From the IMG/VR virus record IMGVR_UViG_2684623171_000001: a stretch of DNA of 39,217 nt, one strand, 5' to 3'. Every line of letters begins with the position of its first letter. Position 1 is the stretch's first letter. The translations under genes and the position numbers were made by a program. Positions 972 through 36,911 of this stretch are shown here, one piece after another. The notes beneath the pieces were generated by a model that was not told the DNA's origin, ran no database searches, and saw only the letters and a program-made list of their open reading frames with translations. The DNA is from a virus (lineage: Duplodnaviria; Heunggongvirae; Uroviricota; Caudoviricetes).

Positions 972-3062
972 ATGTATGTCATTGCAAAAGAACTGATTGG
1001 CGCGCCCGGAATGCCTGCTACAACAAAAGGTATTCGCCAGGCATTACAACGTTACGTACAAGGGAAAAGCTGTTGTTCCCGTCGTCGCTCAGGCTCTAAA
1101 GCAACTGAATACAGCATCGACTGTTTACCTGAAGTGACGCAGCAGGCATTACGTGAACGTTATGCCCTGCAACTGATGACGCAAAAAGCCGATGAATCAC
1201 CGGCTCCGGTGGTGACAAAGGCCAGACGCTCATCTGACGTGGTTGATGCGGTGGAGGCATATCGCGGATCACCACAACTGATGGTCGAACGCCTCAATGC
1301 CCTGACTGAAAACCAGCGCCAGGTGGCTGATGCACGAATCGCGATCGTCAGCGAAGTGATGAAAGTCGCGCAACAACCCGGTTTCAGCTGCGCGAAGGCT
1401 ATCCGGTTTATCGTTGACAACCTGGCACGTTCACAGCTGGACGAGCGCATTGTGGCAATGGTTGAGACGGCGAACGCCAAAAAGGGAAACAGCCGTGCGT
1501 TGAGTGAAATCACGCTGAAGCGATGGATTGCGGCCTTTAACAAGGCACAGAACGCCGCTGAACGCCTGCTTTTACTGGCACCGGGTAAACGCCAGGAAAT
1601 AAAAGCCGAAGATATTAACTGGCTGCCCGAATTTCTGGCGCAGTATCGCCAGTCAAACGGCCGACCAATGACCGAGGCTTACGAGGATTTTGTCGCTGAA
1701 TGGCAGCACCGGCACGCTGATGAGCCTTATATGCTCGATATCATGCCGTCTTATGACACCATTCGCCGCGCAATGAAGAAACTGCCGGAAGTGGTGAAAC
1801 AAAAAGGCCGGGTGACCGGCAGTGAATACCGCCAGCTTGAGGGATTCACGCGCCGCGACTGGTCCAGAATGCCGGTGAATTATGTCTGGATTGGTGACGG
1901 TCACGGCATGAAGCTGAAATGCGCACACCCGGTTCACGGTCGGCCATTTGCACCGGAAGTGACCTTTGTTATCGACGGTGGCACGCGCTTTGTGGTGGGC
2001 TGGAGCCTTGACCTGGCTGAAAATGTTTTCGCCGTAGCCGGTGCCATACAGCACGGCATTCGCCATCACGGCAAACCGTTTCTGTATTACTCGGATAACG
2101 GCTCCGGGGAAACCGCCGACATCCTGGATAAGGAGGTTGTGGGGATACTGCCGCGACTGGGGATTAATCACCCGACCGGGATTGCCGGTAATCCGCAGGG
2201 ACGAGGCATTATCGAACGGCTTAACCGCACATTACCGATGCGCATAGCCCGTAAATACCGCACCTATTTCGGGAAAGGTGCAGATCGCGAGACGTTACGC
2301 AAAACCAACCGCGATTTACGCTCGGCATTTACTGCCCTGCAACAGGGCAAACGGCTGAACGCCCGGCAGCAGTCAGCGATGCGTGATTTACCGTCCTGGT
2401 CTGAACTGATTGATGCCATTCGTGATGGTGTTGAGTGGTACAACAACCGGCCGCACGATGAATTACCGGTGAAGCCGAACGGCAAGCATTACAGCCCGGC
2501 GGAGTTCAGAAAAAAACGCCTGGCGGAAGAGGACACGGAAATTGAATGGCTGTCCGATGTGGAATTGCGGGACATGTTCCGGCCGATGGTGGAACGCCCT
2601 GTAAGACGCTGTGAAATACGCTGGCTGAATAATATTTACTACGCGCCCGAGCTGCGTGATGAGCATGGCCGCAAGGTGCTTATCAGCTATGACATTCATG
2701 ATGCCGAACGAATTACCGTACGTCGCCTGGATGGCAGCGTGATTTGCGAGGCGGTATGGGACGGTAATAAACGCGAAGCCTTCCCGGTTAGCGCGGAATA
2801 CTACAAACAGCAGCAACGCCTTAAAGGCATGCGTAAACGCGCAGAGGAAAAAATCCGTGATGCCGAGGATGAGGTTGTCAACGTGCTGGAGCACAAGCCG
2901 CAGGAGCCCTGGCTGGAAAACATCTATCGCCCGGTAGGTAATACGGTGGCCGTTCAGCAACCTGCCATTGATGATGAGCCTGATGAAGAATACGAGCGCA
3001 ATTTCCAGCGGGGATTGCAGTTGCTCGAAGCGAAATTAAAAGAAAATGACCCGCTGGCCTGA
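972..3062 (+). CDS. A: MuA-type DDE transposase
   Basis: 696 aa immediately after ner and before the B ATPase; size and position match Mu A. Confidence 0.85.
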   Translation: MYVIAKELIGAPGMPATTKGIRQALQRYVQGKSCCSRRRSGSKATEYSIDCLPEVTQQALRERYALQLMTQKADESPAPVVTKARRSSDVVDAVEAYRGSPQLMVERLNALTENQRQVADARIAIVSEVMKVAQQPGFSCAKAIRFIVDNLARSQLDERIVAMVETANAKKGNSRALSEITLKRWIAAFNKAQNAAERLLLLAPGKRQEIKAEDINWLPEFLAQYRQSNGRPMTEAYEDFVAEWQHRHADEPYMLDIMPSYDTIRRAMKKLPEVVKQKGRVTGSEYRQLEGFTRRDWSRMPVNYVWIGDGHGMKLKCAHPVHGRPFAPEVTFVIDGGTRFVVGWSLDLAENVFAVAGAIQHGIRHHGKPFLYYSDNGSGETADILDKEVVGILPRLGINHPTGIAGNPQGRGIIERLNRTLPMRIARKYRTYFGKGADRETLRKTNRDLRSAFTALQQGKRLNARQQSAMRDLPSWSELIDAIRDGVEWYNNRPHDELPVKPNGKHYSPAEFRKKRLAEEDTEIEWLSDVELRDMFRPMVERPVRRCEIRWLNNIYYAPELRDEHGRKVLISYDIHDAERITVRRLDGSVICEAVWDGNKREAFPVSAEYYKQQQRLKGMRKRAEEKIRDAEDEVVNVLEHKPQEPWLENIYRPVGNTVAVQQPAIDDEPDEEYERNFQRGLQLLEAKLKENDPLA

Positions 3063-3132
3063 AATAAAAAATAACCCGAGCGGCGACTCAGGTTATTTGA
3101 TTAAACAAGGTATCAAATGAGAGGTTAATAAT

Positions 3133-4065
3133 ATGACTGATATTAACGATGTAATCAAGACCATTGATGAACTTATTGATGGCGGCGTACTGACGCAGTA
3201 TGCCATCGCCAGAGAGGCGGGAATTTCCGACGGCACATTATCGGCTTTCCGCAAGGGGAAATATAAAGGCGATAACGCCGCTGTGGCTGCTTCCCTGCGT
3301 TCCTGGTATGAGAACTGGAATAAACAAAGCGCACTGCCGGAACCGCCGCAGTTTGTGGAAACGCAGACAGTTCAGGAGCTGCGCGCACTGTTTCAGGCGG
3401 TTCGCCTGATGGGCTGTATTAACGTCATTGTGGGCGTGCCGGGGGTAGGTAAAACGGCCACCGCCCGTAATTACTGCCAGGAGCAACCAAACACCTGGAT
3501 GATCACCCTGTCACCCGCGCACTCCAGCGTCACGGAGTGTCTGCTGGAGCTGGCCGATGCGCTGGGGATTGATTACACCCGCGCGAACAAAGGGGCATTA
3601 TCCCGCGCCATCCGCCGTCGCCTGATGGGAACGCGTGGACTGGTGATTGTGGATGAGGCGGATCATCTTGGTATTGACGGTCTGGAGCAACTCCGGGCAA
3701 TTCAGGACGCCACGGGGATCGGGATGGTGCTTATTGGTAACCCGCGCGGATTGTTTAAAGGTGGACGCCGCGCCTTTGATGATTTATCGCGCCTGTTCAG
3801 CCGTCTTGCCCGTACAAAACAACTTCGCAAGGCCAAAAAGGCGGATGTGCTGGCCATTGCCAGGGCATGGGGTATCAGTGGTGAGGCCGAGCTGGCCGTC
3901 ATGCAGGCTATCGCTGAAAAGCCGGGAGCGTTACGCGTTCTGACACATACGCTTAACCAGGCGTGGCTCACCGCCAGCGGTGAAGGTGCGGCGCTGACAG
4001 AAAAACATATTAATGCGGCCTTTAAAGAGGTTTATACCAACCCTGAATTACTCTCACAGGTGTGA
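3133..4065 (+). CDS. B: MuB-type AAA+ ATPase, transposition target-DNA activator
   Basis: 310 aa; Walker A GVPGVGKT and Walker B VIVDEADHL; follows the transposase as in Mu. Confidence 0.85.
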   Translation: MTDINDVIKTIDELIDGGVLTQYAIAREAGISDGTLSAFRKGKYKGDNAAVAASLRSWYENWNKQSALPEPPQFVETQTVQELRALFQAVRLMGCINVIVGVPGVGKTATARNYCQEQPNTWMITLSPAHSSVTECLLELADALGIDYTRANKGALSRAIRRRLMGTRGLVIVDEADHLGIDGLEQLRAIQDATGIGMVLIGNPRGLFKGGRRAFDDLSRLFSRLARTKQLRKAKKADVLAIARAWGISGEAELAVMQAIAEKPGALRVLTHTLNQAWLTASGEGAALTEKHINAAFKEVYTNPELLSQV

Positions 4066-4289
4066 TTATGGCGGTATTTTATATTCCTGATATTTACGGA
4101 CGCTTTTACCTGGTTAATTTCGATAACGTGAAGGTGATTTCACTGGCCGAAAATAAAGAATGTGGCGATTTACTTTTTGAATTTAATGACCGCACACGAA
4201 TGGTGATATCTGCCGGACTTGATCGCGAAGGTGCGACAGACGTTTACAGCGGAATATGCCGTTCTGTTGGTGCGAAACAAGTCAGCTAA
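4062..4289 (+). CDS. Small protein in the kil position (Kil-like)
   Basis: 75 aa, start overlaps the B stop; position matches Mu kil; no motif confirmation. Confidence 0.45.
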   Translation: MIMAVFYIPDIYGRFYLVNFDNVKVISLAENKECGDLLFEFNDRTRMVISAGLDREGATDVYSGICRSVGAKQVS

Positions 4290-4556
4290 ATGAGGTGTTA
4301 TATGAATATGCAATCCTGCGGTAACAAAATGAATTTATTCGACTCCCTGAACAGCGCGCGCCGTCTGACCGAACTTGCCGGTGCGGTACTGGAACGCAGT
4401 AAGCGCTACCCACAACGTTTTGCACTGAAAACCACGCCGCCGGTAGGCAACGTGCAGGGAACCGGTGAAATTGAAATCACCATACAGACCAACGGCCTGC
4501 GCCGCCGTGTGAAGGCCACCCGCATCAGCGGCTGCACGGTTTACTGGGAGGTGTGA
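4290..4556 (+). CDS. Hypothetical early-region protein
   Basis: 88-aa ORF tightly packed in the rightward early operon; start codon uncertain. Confidence 0.4.
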   Translation: MRCYMNMQSCGNKMNLFDSLNSARRLTELAGAVLERSKRYPQRFALKTTPPVGNVQGTGEIEITIQTNGLRRRVKATRISGCTVYWEV

Positions 4557-10225: not shown

Positions 10226-10296
10226 TATTCCGCAAAGCCTGCCGCCTCTCCTTCACCGTTACGCTGACTCAGAGAACATCATGAGACAGCGTAACA

Positions 10297-18013: not shown

Positions 18014-18189
18014 TTGTTTAAGGTATGCAAATGCATTACCTTACCCCCTTCAGGCGCGTGTCGTGATTTTCTAACCTGTATTTAACGGGCTTTAAAATCT
18101 GCGTGAAGCGCCTTTGTATTTTTCCCCTGGAAGCACTTCCTGAAATCCCGCAAAACCCGCCCTGAAAATTCCCGGCCTATGCTGCCGGA

Positions 18190-31036: not shown

Positions 31037-31587
31037 CCCTGACCCCGCATCAGCGCGCCCTGTTGCAGTTGCTGCCTGACGGGCTGGCATGGGATAAGCG
31101 GCCGTCATCCGTTCTTGCGGCTTTGTGCCTGGGCCTCAGTCATTCCACGGAGCGTGTTTCCTGGACCGGTAACCAGATGCTGGCAGAACGTTTTCCTGAT
31201 TCATCCCGTCTGCTGCTGGAAGACTGGGAGCGTTATCTGGGGTTACCGGAATGTGATATGACCGGCGCAACCATTCAGGAGCGTCAGCGTTATGCCGGGA
31301 ATAAATACCGGATGAAACCCTCTCTTAACCGTGAATTTTATATCCGGTTTGCGGCAGAGTTTGGTTATGAAATAGATATTCAGCCATCACCGGATTCACA
31401 GTGGGTCAGTATTGTCACGATTAACAGTGAAACCGGCTACCGGAATATGAATGTGCTGGATGATATTCTCACGCCGCTGCGTATTTATGAAGGCGGTGCG
31501 CTGGAATGTATTCTGAACCGTTATAAGCCTGCATGGCAGACGTTTATTTACGTATATGCAAACAGTCACGAAGAGGAGAATATTTAA
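31027..31587 (+). CDS. Tail protein (Mu gp48-like)
   Basis: 186 aa directly upstream of the tail-fibre gene; stop overlaps the fibre start (TAATG). Confidence 0.55.
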   Translation: MAVTLTPHQRALLQLLPDGLAWDKRPSSVLAALCLGLSHSTERVSWTGNQMLAERFPDSSRLLLEDWERYLGLPECDMTGATIQERQRYAGNKYRMKPSLNREFYIRFAAEFGYEIDIQPSPDSQWVSIVTINSETGYRNMNVLDDILTPLRIYEGGALECILNRYKPAWQTFIYVYANSHEEENI

Positions 31588-32498
31588 TGTTCCATGTTGA
31601 TAATAATTCCGGCGTGGCGAATATGCCTGCGCTGGCACCGGCGCAGAGTAATACCACCACCTGGTTTACCGAAGGTGACGGACAAAAAGGTATCAGCTGG
31701 ATTGGTCAGGACTGGCTGAATATTCTCCAGGCCGAACTGCTGAATATTCTGGCTGAAGCCAGTATTCAGCCGGATAAGGCGCAGTTAAACCAGCTTACGC
31801 TGTCCATTAAAGCCATTATCGCTGCGAATGCCTTTTCCCGGAAAAACAACCTGAAAGAAATTGCTGATGCCGGTGCGGAAGCCCAGCGTCTTGCCCGTGG
31901 TTATCTTGGTCTTGGGGCGCTTGCCACAAAAAACAGTCTTGGTCCCGGTGACGTTAATGCTCTGGCGAAGGATCAGAACCTTGCCGACCTGGAGAATGCG
32001 GGAACCGCCCGTAATAATCTGGATGTTTACAGCAAAAGCGAAGGTGATAACCGTTACCTGCGCAGGGAGCAGAACGGCGCAGACATTCCGGATAAAGGCG
32101 CTTTTATCGATAACGTCGGTTTACGGGAAACGGTAAATAAGGCTGCTGATGCCCTGCCATCGGGTGGAACCGCCGTGGCAGCAAACAGACTCGCCACCCC
32201 AAGAAATATTAATGGTGTTCCTTTTGACGGAACGCTGGATATCAACATCACGTCAGGAATGACGCAGTCAACCGCAGATGGCCGGTATGTACAGAATGTT
32301 CAGCTTGGAGCACAGAGCTATCATTCACCCGGAGGCAATGAAATGTCATGGAATTACAGCGCACCTTCCGGTTGTATGCTTTCCGGAATTAACGTGCAGG
32401 AAACCGGCTCCCGGTCTGCGGACAATATCGGTGGGGTCTATTATCGCCCGGTTCAGATTTATATTAATAATGCCTGGAGAACGGTAAGTTCAGTGTAA
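31587..32498 (+). CDS. S: Tail fibre protein: constant N-terminal part fused to variable tip Sv in the current orientation
   Basis: ATG at 31587 with GAGGAG RBS; N-terminus MFHVDNNSGVANMPALAP is typical of Mu S / P2 H-type fibres; the C-terminal ~125 aa lie inside the invertible segment. Confidence 0.7.
   Translation: MFHVDNNSGVANMPALAPAQSNTTTWFTEGDGQKGISWIGQDWLNILQAELLNILAEASIQPDKAQLNQLTLSIKAIIAANAFSRKNNLKEIADAGAEAQRLARGYLGLGALATKNSLGPGDVNALAKDQNLADLENAGTARNNLDVYSKSEGDNRYLRREQNGADIPDKGAFIDNVGLRETVNKAADALPSGGTAVAANRLATPRNINGVPFDGTLDINITSGMTQSTADGRYVQNVQLGAQSYHSPGGNEMSWNYSAPSGCMLSGINVQETGSRSADNIGGVYYRPVQIYINNAWRTVSSV
32106..32131. promoter_or_regulatory. Left recombination site (gix-like) for the serine invertase, inside the fibre gene
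   Basis: CGGTTTACGGGA (32116-32127) is identical to the reverse complement of 33484-33495, with partial matches in the flanks. Confidence 0.5.
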
Positions 32499-32508
32499 AC
32501 CACAGAAA

Positions 32509-32527
32509 AGGGTGCTGAATGCACCCT
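32509..32527. terminator. Hairpin between the convergent fibre and chaperone genes, possible bidirectional terminator
   Basis: Perfect 7-bp stem AGGGTGC / GCACCCT with a 5-nt loop; T-rich stretch downstream on the plus strand. Confidence 0.4.
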
Positions 32528-32532
32528 CTGAA

Positions 32533-33054
32533 TTATTCCGGTTTTTCCGGCCAGGGAATCGCCTGGTAATGCCCCTCACTGGCAATATCATTAAAGTGCA
32601 TTTCTTTAAGCTGTCGGATATACGCCATCCAGCGCGTCAGCTGTAATTTATTTTCATCGCTAATCATGTCCAGTTTTAATTCCGTTTTCCAGTCATCCAC
32701 AGTTTCGTTGGCTTCCTGGAGCAGCGATGAGCGGCGCTTTTCAGCAACCGTCTTCCAGTTTACCGGCACCTTTGATATCAGGCCATCAGAAAACTGCCAG
32801 TTACCGTCAATATTCACACCTTCCGGCAGTTCGTCCACTTCAACAACAGTAAAACCTGCCGGATATAAAGCAGAGACATCTTCAGCAACAGAGCAGATAA
32901 TACCCGTTACAGGCGAAATACAGAGTTTGTATTTCTTTGTGAAAAGCGGGATAGATTCATAAAAATCCCTTCCGTCCTCACTCTGGAAATACTGAACATC
33001 CTCACCATAGGGTTTGTGTTCCGGGTAATATCGTTTTACGTTAATAAGCTCCAT
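32533..33054 (-). CDS. Tail fibre assembly chaperone (Tfa/U-type), co-oriented with the silent alternative tip
   Basis: Met at 33054 (MELINVKRYYPEHKPYGEDVQYF...) with a typical Tfa N-terminal motif; AGGTGA RBS; the track ORF extends upstream but this start is better supported. Confidence 0.65.
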   Translation of the reverse strand: MELINVKRYYPEHKPYGEDVQYFQSEDGRDFYESIPLFTKKYKLCISPVTGIICSVAEDVSALYPAGFTVVEVDELPEGVNIDGNWQFSDGLISKVPVNWKTVAEKRRSSLLQEANETVDDWKTELKLDMISDENKLQLTRWMAYIRQLKEMHFNDIASEGHYQAIPWPEKPE

Positions 33055-33133
33055 TATTTCACCTTGTTTTTGTTGAAAAGACAAAATCATCATATATTTA
33101 TTCAGATAATCTGTTTTTTGAACTACTGCACTT

Positions 33134-33505
33134 TTATGCGCTGGAAGCTGTTTTCCACGAACCATCTATCAGAAACTGAACAGGTCGATAATATGCGGTT
33201 ACCGTTGCATTACCATCACCAGCGACATCAAGCCCTGTAAGTACGCATCCGTCAGGAACCTCAAAAATATTATATTGCATTCCAATCGTTGACCTTGAAC
33301 CTCTTCGAATGCTTTGAACATAACGTGAGTCAGCCACAGACTGCGTCATCCCCGATGTAATATTTATATCCTGCGTTCCGTCAAATGGGACACCATTAAT
33401 ATTTCTTGGAGTGGCGAGTTTATTCGCTGCAACAGCCGCTCCGTTCGATGGCAGGGCATTCGCGGCCCTGTTTACAGTATCCCGTAAACCGAAGGTTTCA
33501 GGGAT
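33134..33505 (-). CDS. Alternative tail fibre C-terminal cassette (S'v), promoterless and unfused in this orientation
   Basis: Minus-strand translation from the right site gives GLRDTVNRAANALPSNGAAVAANKLATPRNINGVPFDGTQDINITSGMTQSVADSRYVQ..., paralogous to S residues GLRETVNKAADALPSGGTAVAANRLATPRNINGVPFDGTLDINITSGMTQSTADGRYVQ...; the last ~55 aa diverge. Confidence 0.6.
   Translation of the reverse strand: MPETFGLRDTVNRAANALPSNGAAVAANKLATPRNINGVPFDGTQDINITSGMTQSVADSRYVQSIRRGSRSTIGMQYNIFEVPDGCVLTGLDVAGDGNATVTAYYRPVQFLIDGSWKTASSA
33479..33505. promoter_or_regulatory. Right recombination site (gix-like), upstream of gin
   Basis: Near-palindrome ATCCCGTAAACC-GAA-GGTTTCAGGGAT, resembling gix/hix half-sites. 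Confidence 0.55.
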
Positions 33506-33559: not shown

Positions 33560-34120
33560 ATGCTGATTGGCTATATACGCGTATCAACAAATGACCAGAA
33601 CACAGGTTTACAAAGAAATGCGCTGGAATGTGCAGGATGTGAGCAGATTTTTGAAGATAAAATGAGTGGTAAAACGACACAGCGGCCGGGACTGAAGCGG
33701 GCACTGAAGAAACTAAAACCCGGTGACACACTGATGGTCTGGAAACTGGACAGGCTGGGGCGCAGTATGCGCCACCTTGTTGCGCTGACAGATGAATTAC
33801 AGCAACAGGGGATAAATTTTCGTAGTCTTACTGACAACATTGATACGTCAACCCCCATGGGGCGCTTCTTTTTTCACATAATGGGTGCGCTGGCAGAAAT
33901 GGAGCGTGAATTAATTGTCGAACGGACACGGGCTGGTCTTGCAGCTGCCCGTGAAAGGGGACGAACCGGCGGCAGACCCCGTCGTCTCACGCAGGAACAA
34001 TACGAGCAGGTCGGGCGTTTACTGGCCGGGGGTGTCAGTCGAAGACAGGTGGCACTTATTTTTGATATCGGCCTTTCAACCCTTTATCGTTATTATCCTG
34101 CGAGCGTTTCGGAAAAATAA
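33560..34120 (+). CDS. gin: Serine-recombinase DNA invertase (Gin/Hin/Pin family)
   Basis: 186 aa; N-terminus MLIGYIRVSTNDQN with the catalytic Ser; C-terminal HTH (GLSTLYRYY); adjacent to the invertible fibre segment. Confidence 0.85.
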   Translation: MLIGYIRVSTNDQNTGLQRNALECAGCEQIFEDKMSGKTTQRPGLKRALKKLKPGDTLMVWKLDRLGRSMRHLVALTDELQQQGINFRSLTDNIDTSTPMGRFFFHIMGALAEMERELIVERTRAGLAAARERGRTGGRPRRLTQEQYEQVGRLLAGGVSRRQVALIFDIGLSTLYRYYPASVSEK

Positions 34121-34219
34121 GACGCTCTCTTTGTTGGGCCTTTACTGAATTAACGCAAAATGGCGTTTATCGGTCTGTGGATATGATAATTCAGTTTATT
34201 CAGGAACAGGCTGATTATT

Positions 34220-36259
34220 ATGACGTCCAAATGGGTTCAACTATCATCAATGCCCGGAAACTTTACTGTTAAAGTTTCCGGTGGTACAGCGGCATTTCTT
34301 GAGGCTCCCTTTCCTCCGGCCGAAACAAAAGGAGGAATGACATTTGCTGACTGTCTCATCAGTTTTAATACACGGGATTGCCTGTGGGTAAGGCCAGTAT
34401 CCGGTGATCCGAGTGTGGAAATTACCGGAGCGGGTATTGGTGCGGTCATTCCGTTAAGTGCTGATGTTGCCGGTACTGCTGAACCGTCAGACTGGGATAA
34501 TGCTGAAACACATACCCGTCCGTCAGGAAATGAAACTGCTTCCAGCTCCCCTTCCTGGTATTACGTGGTGGTTCTTGCTGGTCAGTCAAACGGTATGGCT
34601 TACGGTGAAGGTCTGCCACTGCCGGAGACATATGACCGCCCCGAACCGCGTATTATGCAGTTAGCCCGTCGCAGTACAGTCACGCCGGGAGGTAAAGCCT
34701 GTCAGTATAACGACATCATTCTGGCCGACCACTGTCTGCATGATGTGCAGGATATGAGTGGAAAAAATCACCCGAAAGCGGATGTGGCTAAAGGGCAATA
34801 TGGCACCGTGGGTCAGGGGCTTCACATTGCCAAAAAACTGCTGCCGTTTATTCCGGCAGATGCGGGGATTCTGCTGGTTCCCTGCTGCCGTGGTGGTTCT
34901 GCATTCACGGCGGGTGCTGACGGCACGTACAGTGACAGCACGGGTGCTTCAGAGGACTCAGCCCGCTGGGGTGTGGATAAGCCGCTGTATAAGGACTTAA
35001 TCAGCCGGACAAAAGCGGCACTGGCGAAGAACCCGAAAAACCGCCTGCTTGCTGTGGTGTGGATGCAGGGCGAGTTTGATATTGATGCGAAGCCGACGGA
35101 GCATTCCGCGCTGTTTCTGGCGATGGTGGAAAAATTCCGCGCAGACCTGGCTGAACAGGCGGAACAGTGTACCGGTGGCAGTGCTGCTGGCGTTCCGTGG
35201 ATTTGTGGCGATACCACGTATTTCTGGAAACAGAAAAATGAACCGGCATACCAGGCAATCTATGGCGGCTACAAAAACAAAACAGATAAAAACATTCATT
35301 TCGTTCCATTAATGACAGATGAAAATGACGCGAATGTACCCACCAACAATCCGGCAGAAGACCCGGATATTGAATCCATTGGTTATTACGGCTCAACGTG
35401 GCGTAACAGTGCCGCCACCTGGACATCTGCGGACCGGGCCAGCCATTTCAGTTCATGGGCACGTCGTGGGATTATTTCCGACCGTCTGGCCACGGCAGTT
35501 CTGACTCATGCGGGGCGAACCACAGTAAAAGCCGATGTTCCATCTTCTGAAACTGAAGCACCAGTGCCGTCACCTTCAGAAACTGAAGCAGTAACCACAA
35601 CACTGCTGTCTTATCGTGTCAGTGAGTCAGAAGGAAATCTGAAAGCCCAGGGCTGGGAGCCGGCTGGCGGTAAAGCTGAAATTATCAGTGATGCAGGAGG
35701 CACAGGTGGTAAGGCAATGAAACTGACCAAGGAAACAGGTAAATCATCCTGGTATCTGGATCATGATGCCGGTACTGGTGCTGAACTGCTGAAAAATGGT
35801 GGTTTAATCAGTTGTCGTTTTAAAGTACCTGGCGACCTGGTGGCAAACCAGTATGTCATGGGGCTTTACTGGCCGGTTTCCTCTCTGCCGCAGGGTGTCA
35901 CCCTGACAGGGGATGCAGGGAATAATCTGCTGGCATCGTTCTACATCCAGACAGACGCAAAAGACCTGAATGTGATGTACCACAATGCAAAAGTGGCAAC
36001 AAATAACCAGAAACTGGGAACCTTTGGTGCATTTGATAATGAATGGCATACGCTGGCCTTCCGTTTTGCAGGAAATAACAGCCTTCAGGTTATTCCGGTT
36101 ATTGATGGTCAGGATGGTGCCGCGTTTACCCTGACGCAGTCACCAGTAGGAACTTTCCCGGTGGACAAACTCCGCGTAACGGATATCACAAAAAATGCAA
36201 CTTACCCGGTGCTGATTGACAGCATTGTGGTGGAAGTGAAAAAAGCGGTAACAGAATAA
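34220..36259 (+). CDS. SASA/SGNH-type sialate O-acetylesterase-like protein with unknown N-terminal domain and lectin-like C-terminal domain (NanS-p-like prophage esterase)
   Basis: 679 aa; GQSN catalytic motif (VVLAGQSNGMAYGEG) and downstream WMQGEFD; duplicated SETEA linker (PSSETEAPVPSPSETEAV); C-terminal ~220 aa have beta-rich, lectin-like composition; has no counterpart in Mu between gin and mom. Confidence 0.65.
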   Translation: MTSKWVQLSSMPGNFTVKVSGGTAAFLEAPFPPAETKGGMTFADCLISFNTRDCLWVRPVSGDPSVEITGAGIGAVIPLSADVAGTAEPSDWDNAETHTRPSGNETASSSPSWYYVVVLAGQSNGMAYGEGLPLPETYDRPEPRIMQLARRSTVTPGGKACQYNDIILADHCLHDVQDMSGKNHPKADVAKGQYGTVGQGLHIAKKLLPFIPADAGILLVPCCRGGSAFTAGADGTYSDSTGASEDSARWGVDKPLYKDLISRTKAALAKNPKNRLLAVVWMQGEFDIDAKPTEHSALFLAMVEKFRADLAEQAEQCTGGSAAGVPWICGDTTYFWKQKNEPAYQAIYGGYKNKTDKNIHFVPLMTDENDANVPTNNPAEDPDIESIGYYGSTWRNSAATWTSADRASHFSSWARRGIISDRLATAVLTHAGRTTVKADVPSSETEAPVPSPSETEAVTTTLLSYRVSESEGNLKAQGWEPAGGKAEIISDAGGTGGKAMKLTKETGKSSWYLDHDAGTGAELLKNGGLISCRFKVPGDLVANQYVMGLYWPVSSLPQGVTLTGDAGNNLLASFYIQTDAKDLNVMYHNAKVATNNQKLGTFGAFDNEWHTLAFRFAGNNSLQVIPVIDGQDGAAFTLTQSPVGTFPVDKLRVTDITKNATYPVLIDSIVVEVKKAVTE

Positions 36260-36405
36260 AAAAATCCCGCCGGTCATGATATGGCTGGCGGGAGCTACCT
36301 AACCCATAAAGGAAAATAAAAATACTCCCGAAGGAGTGGTTATCAGTCGCTTCGATGTTTTTACCCGATAACGAATTATGTAGTCAATATCAAAGGTAAG
36401 GTTAT

Positions 36406-36588
36406 ATGACATTCGTTCATACAATGCTGCTTTATTTCTGCGCTGTGGTCAGTGCGTTATATCTGGTGAGCGGTGGTTATAAGGTCATCAGAAATTATAT
36501 TCGCCGTAAAATTGATGATGCGGCAGCTGAAAAACTCAGTAAAACAGCACAGGCACCGTCATCCCCAAACGACCCGACCCCGCTCTGA
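36406..36588 (+). CDS. Small membrane protein
   Basis: 60 aa; N-terminal TM helix (MLLYFCAVVSALYLVSGG); AAGGTAAGG RBS. Confidence 0.35.
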   Translation: MTFVHTMLLYFCAVVSALYLVSGGYKVIRNYIRRKIDDAAAEKLSKTAQAPSSPNDPTPL

Positions 36589-36623
36589 TAACGGGGCAAT
36601 ATACCTGCAAAAGGAGAATATTC

Positions 36624-36869
36624 ATGCCAGAGATTAAAGGCACGGTTACTGAAGAGCTTGTCAAACAGGCACTTTATTCTGAAGAAGTGAACCGCGTGCT
36701 GAAGGCGCAGGTTCGCAAGGATTTTGAGGCACAAATCGACGCATATGTTGATGAAGTGCTGGCCCGAATGGTTGGCCGTTCTCCGGCTGAAAACAGCACG
36801 GAAAATGATCCTCAACCCGTAGAGCAACCAGAGCCGGTTCAGCCCGGAACTGACGGTACTATGATGTAA
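36624..36869 (+). CDS. Small acidic hypothetical protein
   Basis: 81 aa; strong AAGGAG RBS; followed by a hairpin terminator. Confidence 0.4.
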   Translation: MPEIKGTVTEELVKQALYSEEVNRVLKAQVRKDFEAQIDAYVDEVLARMVGRSPAENSTENDPQPVEQPEPVQPGTDGTMM

Positions 36870-36879
36870 CAATACCGAC

Positions 36880-36911
36880 CGGCAGGTTTCCCTGCCGGGT
36901 GAGTTTGTTAA
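36880..36911 (+). terminator. Hairpin terminator after the two small genes
   Basis: 8-bp stem CCGGCAGG / CCTGCCGG with a 4-nt loop, followed by GTGAGTTTGTT. Confidence 0.4.

Follow-up and report, generated by a model that had tools for sequence, protein, structure and literature searches.

Inversion of tail-fibre genes is textbook knowledge. The G segment of phage Mu (and of D108 and SfMu), about 3 kb long and served by the invertase Gin, holds two alternative ends of the fibre gene S and two genes for chaperones of the Tfa family, U and U'. The C segment of P1 with Cin, the P segment of e14 with Pin and the P2-like phages P88 and Cartapus with Gin-like enzymes rely on the same recombinase family and the same logic of swapping the C-terminus of the fibre. 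The segments of P1 and e14 possess two tfa genes each. Here we describe a more compact variant with two tips and a single tfa, unlike P88 and Cartapus, where two convergent tfa genes lie within the segment. It is found in the IMG/VR virus record IMGVR_UViG_2684623171_000001 (Caudoviricetes); the whole stretch analysed, 39,217 nucleotides, is called the window below. The window is an Sp18-type Mu-like prophage of Shiga toxin-producing Escherichia coli (STEC), and its lone Tfa probably serves both tips.

That Sp18 has an invertible region has been on record since 2009 (PMC2669165), and tail-fibre inversions have been systematically catalogued, the validated example being a two-tfa segment (PMC9881135). 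The Mu-like inversion that Milman et al. validated with long reads (CP066032) is a classical two-tfa G segment and not the variant described here. In the searchable literature we found no description of the one-chaperone layout, nor of its derivatives that lack gin and carry tfa in antisense. What we add is modest and opens no new field: a minimal switch, with tips of ~120 residues and one chaperone, that is conserved and common in E. coli, STEC included.

Architecture of the switch

The invertible segment extends over 1,377 bp from core to core (32116-33492). It contains, from left to right, the variable part Sv of the fibre gene on the plus strand, a hairpin, then tfa and the alternative variable part S'v on the minus strand; the gene of a Gin homologue adjoins. 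An earlier note on the window, written without database searches, had described a Gin-type segment of about 1.4 kb between inverted gix-like sites, with an expressed Sv convergent to a silent S'v followed by tfa, a hairpin between the convergent genes and no chaperone co-oriented with the expressed fibre. All of these elements are present. Its contrast with Mu was also drawn correctly: tfa occurs twice in Mu, as it does in SfMu, P88 and Cartapus.

The fibre gene S, as expressed here, occupies 31587-32498 on the plus strand (an open reading frame of 303 amino acids, 'tail fiber protein' in RefSeq). Residues 1-198 align to residues 1-191 of Mu S, and residues 229-302 to its tip, 435-503 (PDB 5YVQ chain A); because both ends align in this way, S is a shortened Mu-type fibre. 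Its constant part Sc, ~176 residues (31587-32115, plus strand), lies outside the segment and is common to both fusions, in silico and in natural flipped genomes. Sv (32116-32498, plus strand) is now joined to Sc and consists of a proximal part encoded by an inverted repeat and a distal tip of 67 residues. S'v (33492-33134, minus strand) has no start codon of its own and joins Sc on inversion. The two products, Sc-Sv of 303 and Sc-S'v of 295 residues, are both intact in the window and in L014, L001 and L002 (L-numbers are locus labels for the relatives compared), and the reading frames are intact in all copies examined.

The tips were said to be near-identical for some 60 residues past the crossover and to diverge only in the last ~55. 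The first part of this claim is too strong: over the first 57 residues Sv and S'v are 84% identical (48/57). As to the second, the distal tips are 67 (Sv) and 59 (S'v) residues long and still homologous, with 38% identity (22/58) and a common C-terminal motif, YYRPVQ..W.T.SS. Compared with the diverged relatives L014 and L007, the Sv tip gives a ratio of nonsynonymous to synonymous substitution rates (dN/dS) of 0.09-0.13 at a synonymous divergence (dS) of 0.5-0.7; as judged from these ratios, it is under purifying selection.

The left gix-like site (32104-32129, core 32116-32117) reads TTATCGATAACG-TC-GGTTTACGGGAA. It is identical to the Mu left site, TTATCCAAAACCTCGGTTTACAGGAA, in 22 of 26 positions, has canonical spacing and falls at the same place within the protein as in Mu (FI[DQ]N[VL]GL). 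The right site (33479-33505) reads ATCCCGTAAACC-GA-(A)GGTTTCAGGGAT. It differs from Mu and from relatives by an extra A beside the core, at 33493, which puts one half-site 1 bp out of register. The right sites of Sakai, FORC_044, L003 and L014 have canonical spacing and match the Mu right site in 20 of 26 positions. The arms of a 185-nt inverted repeat with 78% complementarity (32109-32293 and 33315-33499) extend inward from the two sites. The adjoining serine DNA invertase of the Gin family (33560-34120, plus strand, 186 residues) matches Pfam families Resolvase PF00239 (E = 1.4e-51) and HTH_7 PF02796 (E = 1.7e-14). Its identity to Mu Gin is 70% in a global alignment and 75% by tblastn, and the first 180 nt of the gene are 76% identical to Mu gin.

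The only tfa gene (33054-32533, minus strand) encodes 173 residues that match Pfam PF02413 Caudo_TAP (E = 1.9e-18, 67 bits against a cut-off of 22). The protein is homologous to Mu U and shares its two-domain layout (PDB 5YVQ chain B, ~30% identity, E = 2e-15). A tblastn search of the whole 39 kb with seven Tfa proteins returned a single match, 32533-33054, and thus no second chaperone gene on the plus strand. A 98-residue open reading frame antisense to tfa was rejected as a candidate, being absent from the diverged relative L007. The stop codons of Sv and tfa are 34 nt apart, and between them lies the hairpin (32507-32529), with a folding energy of -15 to -18 kcal/mol and a z-score near -3.6. 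Because TTTTCTGTGG comes after it on the minus strand, it looks like the terminator of tfa; its plus-strand side has no T-run. Upstream of tfa, an untranslated spacer of 79 nt with 25% G+C (33055-33133, minus strand) separates it from S'v.

The resemblance to the Mu G segment is thus close: invertases 70-75% identical, homologous 26-bp sites at the same position in S, gin immediately to the right, a homologous Sc (E = 4e-49), a tip homologous to Mu S 435-503 and a Tfa homologous to U. The differences lie in size and content. The segment measures 1.38 kb against ~3 kb in Mu, its variable parts 118-126 residues against ~320, and it has one tfa in place of two (U and U'), preceded by the AT-rich 79-nt spacer where Mu has 2-3 nt. 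Also unlike Mu, a nanS-p-like cassette lies between gin and com/mom.

Both orientations occur in nature

We reverse-complemented 32116-33492 between its flanks in silico and used the resulting 2.5-kb sequence as a query. It is identical, at 100.0% and without a break over the 2.5 kb, to the complete E. coli genomes FORC_044, O157:H7 2-6-2 and 07_3636, the sole difference being the extra A of the right site. In FORC_044 the natural flip is annotated by RefSeq as a fibre of 295 residues, exactly Sc-S'v, followed by tfa. Since the product of the in-silico flip equals complete genomes, inversion occurs in nature; this comparison shows that the Gin-type switch inverts and that both orientations exist. 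The invertibility claimed by the earlier note is thereby borne out by near-identical prophages that exist in both states, from complete genomes as well as IMG/VR contigs.

The orientation of the window is the more frequent one. Of the genomes in which 80% or more of the 2.5-kb query was covered, 182 have the window orientation and 23 the flipped one; short junction queries gave ~173 and ~36, and the IMG/VR loci divide into 15 with Sv and 5 with the flipped arrangement. The window orientation thus accounts for ~80-90% of genomes. Some genomes hold several related prophages, with up to 8-9 matching places.

Insertion sites were all different in the 11 genomes checked (six in the window orientation, five flipped), which indicates that the element is mobile. 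Several of these sites fall within other prophages, in portal and tape-measure genes.

The extra A defines an allele of its own. At 33491-33493 the window reads CCGAAGG, against CCGAGG in Mu and in the relatives Sakai, FORC_044, L003, L014, L027 and SCU-171. It occurs in ~37 of ~173 genomes with the window orientation and in none of the ~36 flipped junctions examined; those flipped junctions with an extra base that were sequenced have an extra T further out. The allele, seen only in the Sv orientation, is spread over O157:H7, O26, O103 and O145 strains and six different insertion sites. A shift of 1 bp in the spacing of half-sites is expected to impair the Gin dimer, and for this reason the allele may be locked: the extra A may slow or block inversion and fix the Sv state, bearing in mind that the allele counts are phylogenetically non-independent. 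Such a lock was rejected as the cause of the orientation bias, which persists among canonical sites (~136 to 36).

One tfa per segment is conserved among relatives

A scan of genome contigs with the single Tfa confirmed no relative; when a Tfa alignment was run against IMG/VR, 80 loci came back. The compact layout appears in ~30 of them, each with exactly one tfa. These ~30 loci show three or more tip types on each side, their Sv-side tips are 42-100% identical to Sv of the window, and their Tfa proteins 61-100% identical. With tips so varied and Tfa identity so broad, all beside one tfa, the one-chaperone layout is best read as a conserved design and not as accident or decay. L003 has another, Mu-S-like tip ahead of a Tfa 98% identical to that of the window, and L007 and L008 keep the layout with the C-terminal half of Tfa replaced (72% identity). 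Two-tfa invertible segments holding the same Tfa family exist as well (L098, L107).

Sv-type tips are also found in conventional operons, and there they always precede a tfa: in SfMu (gp52-gp51), in P2-like phages (H and tfa) and in the non-invertible Mu-like E. coli prophages L009-L011. The last are especially close to the window, with a short S of 331 residues that ends in an Sv-type tip (...SGINVQDTGRGSADNIGGVYYKQTQIYINGAWRTVSG), a Tfa of the same family and the same neighbouring baseplate genes. Unlike the window, they have neither invertase nor alternative tip: tfa follows S in the same operon after 14 nt, and a second, lambda-Stf-like fibre gene comes next. Their Tfa is 57% identical to that of the window overall and 68% in the fibre-binding N-domain.

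Spacers of 79-121 nt ahead of tfa are confined to invertible single-tfa loci and to the gin-less derivatives described below; elsewhere the gap between fibre gene and tfa is 2-14 nt.

Lambdoid phages of the mEpX1 type carry a related invertase. They were set aside as not comparable, having a different fibre and no recognisable Tfa. In L031 (phage mEpX1), a Gin-like invertase with 54% identity lies beside that fibre gene, with fibre-like open reading frames on the minus strand (1703-4349); gp25 of this phage, annotated as a plus-strand 'hypothetical protein', may be an antisense miscall.

Derivatives without gin retain an antisense tfa

Gin, the right site and S'v are all absent from seven IMG/VR loci (L041-L046 and L050) and from the complete E. 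coli genomes CI5, M1, M3 and M18. The loss is one deletion, which runs from the last codons of S'v to ~68 nt before the gin stop codon and leaves the spacer (type B) wholly in place. The resulting gene order is S, reversed tfa and a forward nanS-p-like gene, with tfa as the only reverse gene, 305 nt from its divergent neighbour and permanently antisense to the only fibre gene. Two types of Sv-side tip occur among them, with 47% and 91% identity to Sv of the window.

Despite this position, tfa is intact (173 residues) in 7 of 7 gin-less IMG/VR loci and likewise in CI5, M1, M3 and M18; the copy of E. coli M18 corresponds to L113 4401-4922. Among gin-less loci the gene gives a dN/dS of 0.10-0.23 at dS up to 0.43. 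As tfa is antisense to the late operon in these loci yet apparently under purifying selection, it would there have to be transcribed on its own. A candidate promoter is at hand: on the tfa strand, ~125-175 nt upstream of the start codon, these loci carry ATGATA-17-TATAAT (10/12, sigma-70-like, at ~125-150 nt) and two overlapping sites scoring 9/12. L003 has a 9/12 sigma-70-like site, ATGACC-18-TACAAT, at a similar distance upstream of tfa.

A proposed single chaperone for two tips

In the switch, the invertase recombines the two 26-bp gix-like sites, one within S and the other just upstream of gin, and the flip of 1.38 kb joins the constant N-terminal 176 residues of S to either Sv or S'v, giving two fibres with different receptor-binding tips. 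For the chaperone we propose the following. The single tfa would encode a generalist, of a lineage normally paired with Sv-type tips. It would form a unit of its own, whose promoter would lie within the AT-rich spacer or the 3' end of S'v, so that Tfa would be made in either orientation and serve both tips. In the flipped orientation the late operon would also run on into tfa, whose hairpin would end that transcript. In Mu, Tfa is required for fibre assembly, stays on the mature fibre and the virion, and aids receptor recognition (PMC9608196, PMC11915804). The synteny seen in relatives and the retention of tfa in gin-less derivatives suggest that the tips described here likewise require Tfa for folding and trimerisation. 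We consider it probable that a Gin-type switch operates with one generalist Tfa, transcribed on its own from a putative promoter and serving both tips. The earlier note had left three options open: that Sv needs no chaperone, that a chaperone was simply lost, or that one chaperone serves both tips. The comparative evidence favours the last of these and speaks against the other two.

Among the alternatives, the one that survives best is that the Sv tip folds without Tfa, the gene being meant for S'v only and silent in the Sv orientation. The fibre is indeed short (303 residues), its tip is small, and the window has no consensus-grade promoter upstream of tfa. However, the Sv-type tips of conventional operons are always followed by a tfa (SfMu, P2-like phages, L009-type loci), and the gin-less derivatives, which have lost S'v, keep an intact tfa under apparent purifying selection beside an Sv-side tip only. 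We therefore hold this reading to be unlikely.

Less plausible again is a supply of Tfa in trans, either from a minority of copies flipped during replicative transposition or from the tfa genes of co-resident prophages. Several related prophages do coexist in some genomes (the 8-9 matching places mentioned above), and the hairpin, lacking a T-run on the plus strand, could allow late read-through from Sv into gin and so raise Gin late. This is hard to reconcile with gin-less derivatives, which cannot flip, and with the inversion of Mu, reported to be slow both in lysogens and in lytic growth (PMC10434027). Moreover, Mu Tfa stays bound to the fibre, so roughly stoichiometric amounts would be expected.

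On the classical Mu model, in which each tip is expressed together with its own chaperone (S with U, S' with U'; PMC4406740), the Sv orientation would be a defective or OFF state: the fibre would misfold without a co-oriented chaperone, and only flipped genomes would give infectious virions. We find this very improbable. The Sv orientation is the majority one and occupies a different insertion site in each of the six genomes checked; the extra-A allele, seen in this orientation only, is spread over four serotypes and six sites; the Sv tip has a dN/dS of ~0.1; and fixed gin-less derivatives persist and diversify.

Least likely of all is that a Mu-type G segment recently decayed, a deletion having removed one tfa of the pair, and that the layout has no functional significance: two-tfa segments with the same Tfa family exist (L098, L107) and the 34 nt between the stop codons of Sv and tfa are as after clean loss of a U-like gene, but the one-tfa layout is kept over many variants of tip and Tfa (the latter down to 61% identity), the closest non-invertible relatives likewise have one tfa, and no copy examined has a broken reading frame.

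Several points weigh against a generalist Tfa made in both orientations. Expression of tfa in either orientation is deduced from sequence comparison, and ahead of tfa the window has no sigma-70 match as good as 9/12. The best-scoring candidates there, ATGGTA-17-TATTAT (starting at 33216), TTGACG-16-TATTAC (33384) and AAAACA-17-TATGAT (33117), rank in the top 0.05-0.4% of window positions, but lie in AT-rich DNA where such matches abound. The derived late-promoter motif, CGCAAA-N22/23-TAnGnT, does not occur in the segment. Orientation counts are phylogenetically non-independent, and part of the signal of purifying selection on Sv and tfa could come from variation recombined in from loci with conventional operons. 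On the side of S'v, sequenced phages offer a single close relative of the tip, in Hafnia phage yong1, where it is paired with a Tfa whose N-domain is just 31% identical to that of the window, and the fit of the window Tfa to S'v is deduced from adjacency only. With 68% identity in the N-domain to the Tfa of L009-L011 and 31% to that of yong1, the sole Tfa belongs by ancestry with Sv no less than with S'v.

Two other sources of tfa transcription were considered. A late, C-dependent promoter was rejected, the derived motif being absent from the segment, and the region upstream of gin yielded nothing convincing as a leftward promoter. The motif itself had been derived from the regions upstream of the lys, I and nanS-p-like genes. 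In the form CGCAAA-N22/23-TA(C/T)G(C/A)T it lies at 10231-10265, 18149-18183 and 34154-34187, upstream of the lys-like, I-like and nanS-p-like genes respectively; the window holds four matches, where 0.98 is expected by chance. The activator box of these candidate late promoters is unlike the C box of Mu, TTAT-N6-ATAA, which is seen at Mu Pmom and is not used in this phage; nothing equivalent turned up ahead of the P-like gene.

The two halves of Tfa differ in their conservation. Between the window and L007, L009 and L012, the N-terminal, fibre-binding half is conserved (91, 68 and 64% identity), while the C-terminal half is divergent and recombining (49, 44 and 30%). Tfa proteins in general are described as having the opposite pattern; here the C-domain might be exposed and host-binding.

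If a generalist Tfa does serve both tips, we can go a step further, though only tentatively. An autonomous tfa inside the segment would uncouple the supply of chaperone from the choice of tip, with one generalist Tfa for five or more tip types. Because the C-terminal half changes fast, and because Tfa of the Mu type remains virion-bound and attaches to the cell surface, the C-domain could be a second host-range determinant, one that does not flip.

The locus has practical sides as well. With one Tfa lineage beside several tips only ~40-46% identical, it offers a natural test bed for Tfa specificity, and it could help in the design of engineered fibre tips that share one chaperone. The gin-less variants are locked by nature and can serve as controls; the extra-A variants would be too, if the altered spacing locks them as supposed.

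Identity and surroundings of the prophage

The region is 100% identical to Mu-like prophages in complete STEC genomes, among them O157:H7 FRIK2455 and O26, O103 and O145 strains. In the chromosome of Sakai (O157:H7), the right junction is 98.8% identical and in the same orientation, within an element annotated as 'prophage Sp18, Mu-like phage'. Sp18 and the window are in essence one element; at its right site the window has the extra A, which Sakai lacks, and the window variant sits in dcuC (FRIK2455 type), unlike Sp18 of Sakai.

The fibre region is preceded by Mu-type baseplate genes (homologues of gp44-gp48) and followed, in order, by the invertase, the nanS-p-like esterase cassette, com/mom and host dcuC. 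The cassette, between gin and com/mom, occupies 34220-36869 and comprises a 679-residue protein with a sialate O-acetylesterase (SASA) domain and DUF6645, then DUF1378 and DUF826 genes; we take it to resemble the nanS-p cassette that adjoins stx in Stx phages. The same slot in L009-L011 holds the lambda-Stf-like second fibre and a DUF4376 protein.

Between the DUF826 gene and com, an open reading frame of 154 residues on the minus strand (36908-37372, 'hypothetical protein' in RefSeq) is the sole other reverse-oriented gene of the right arm. At the right end, 38396-39217 belong to host dcuC, split by the prophage; in FRIK2455, nanR and nanA lie alongside.

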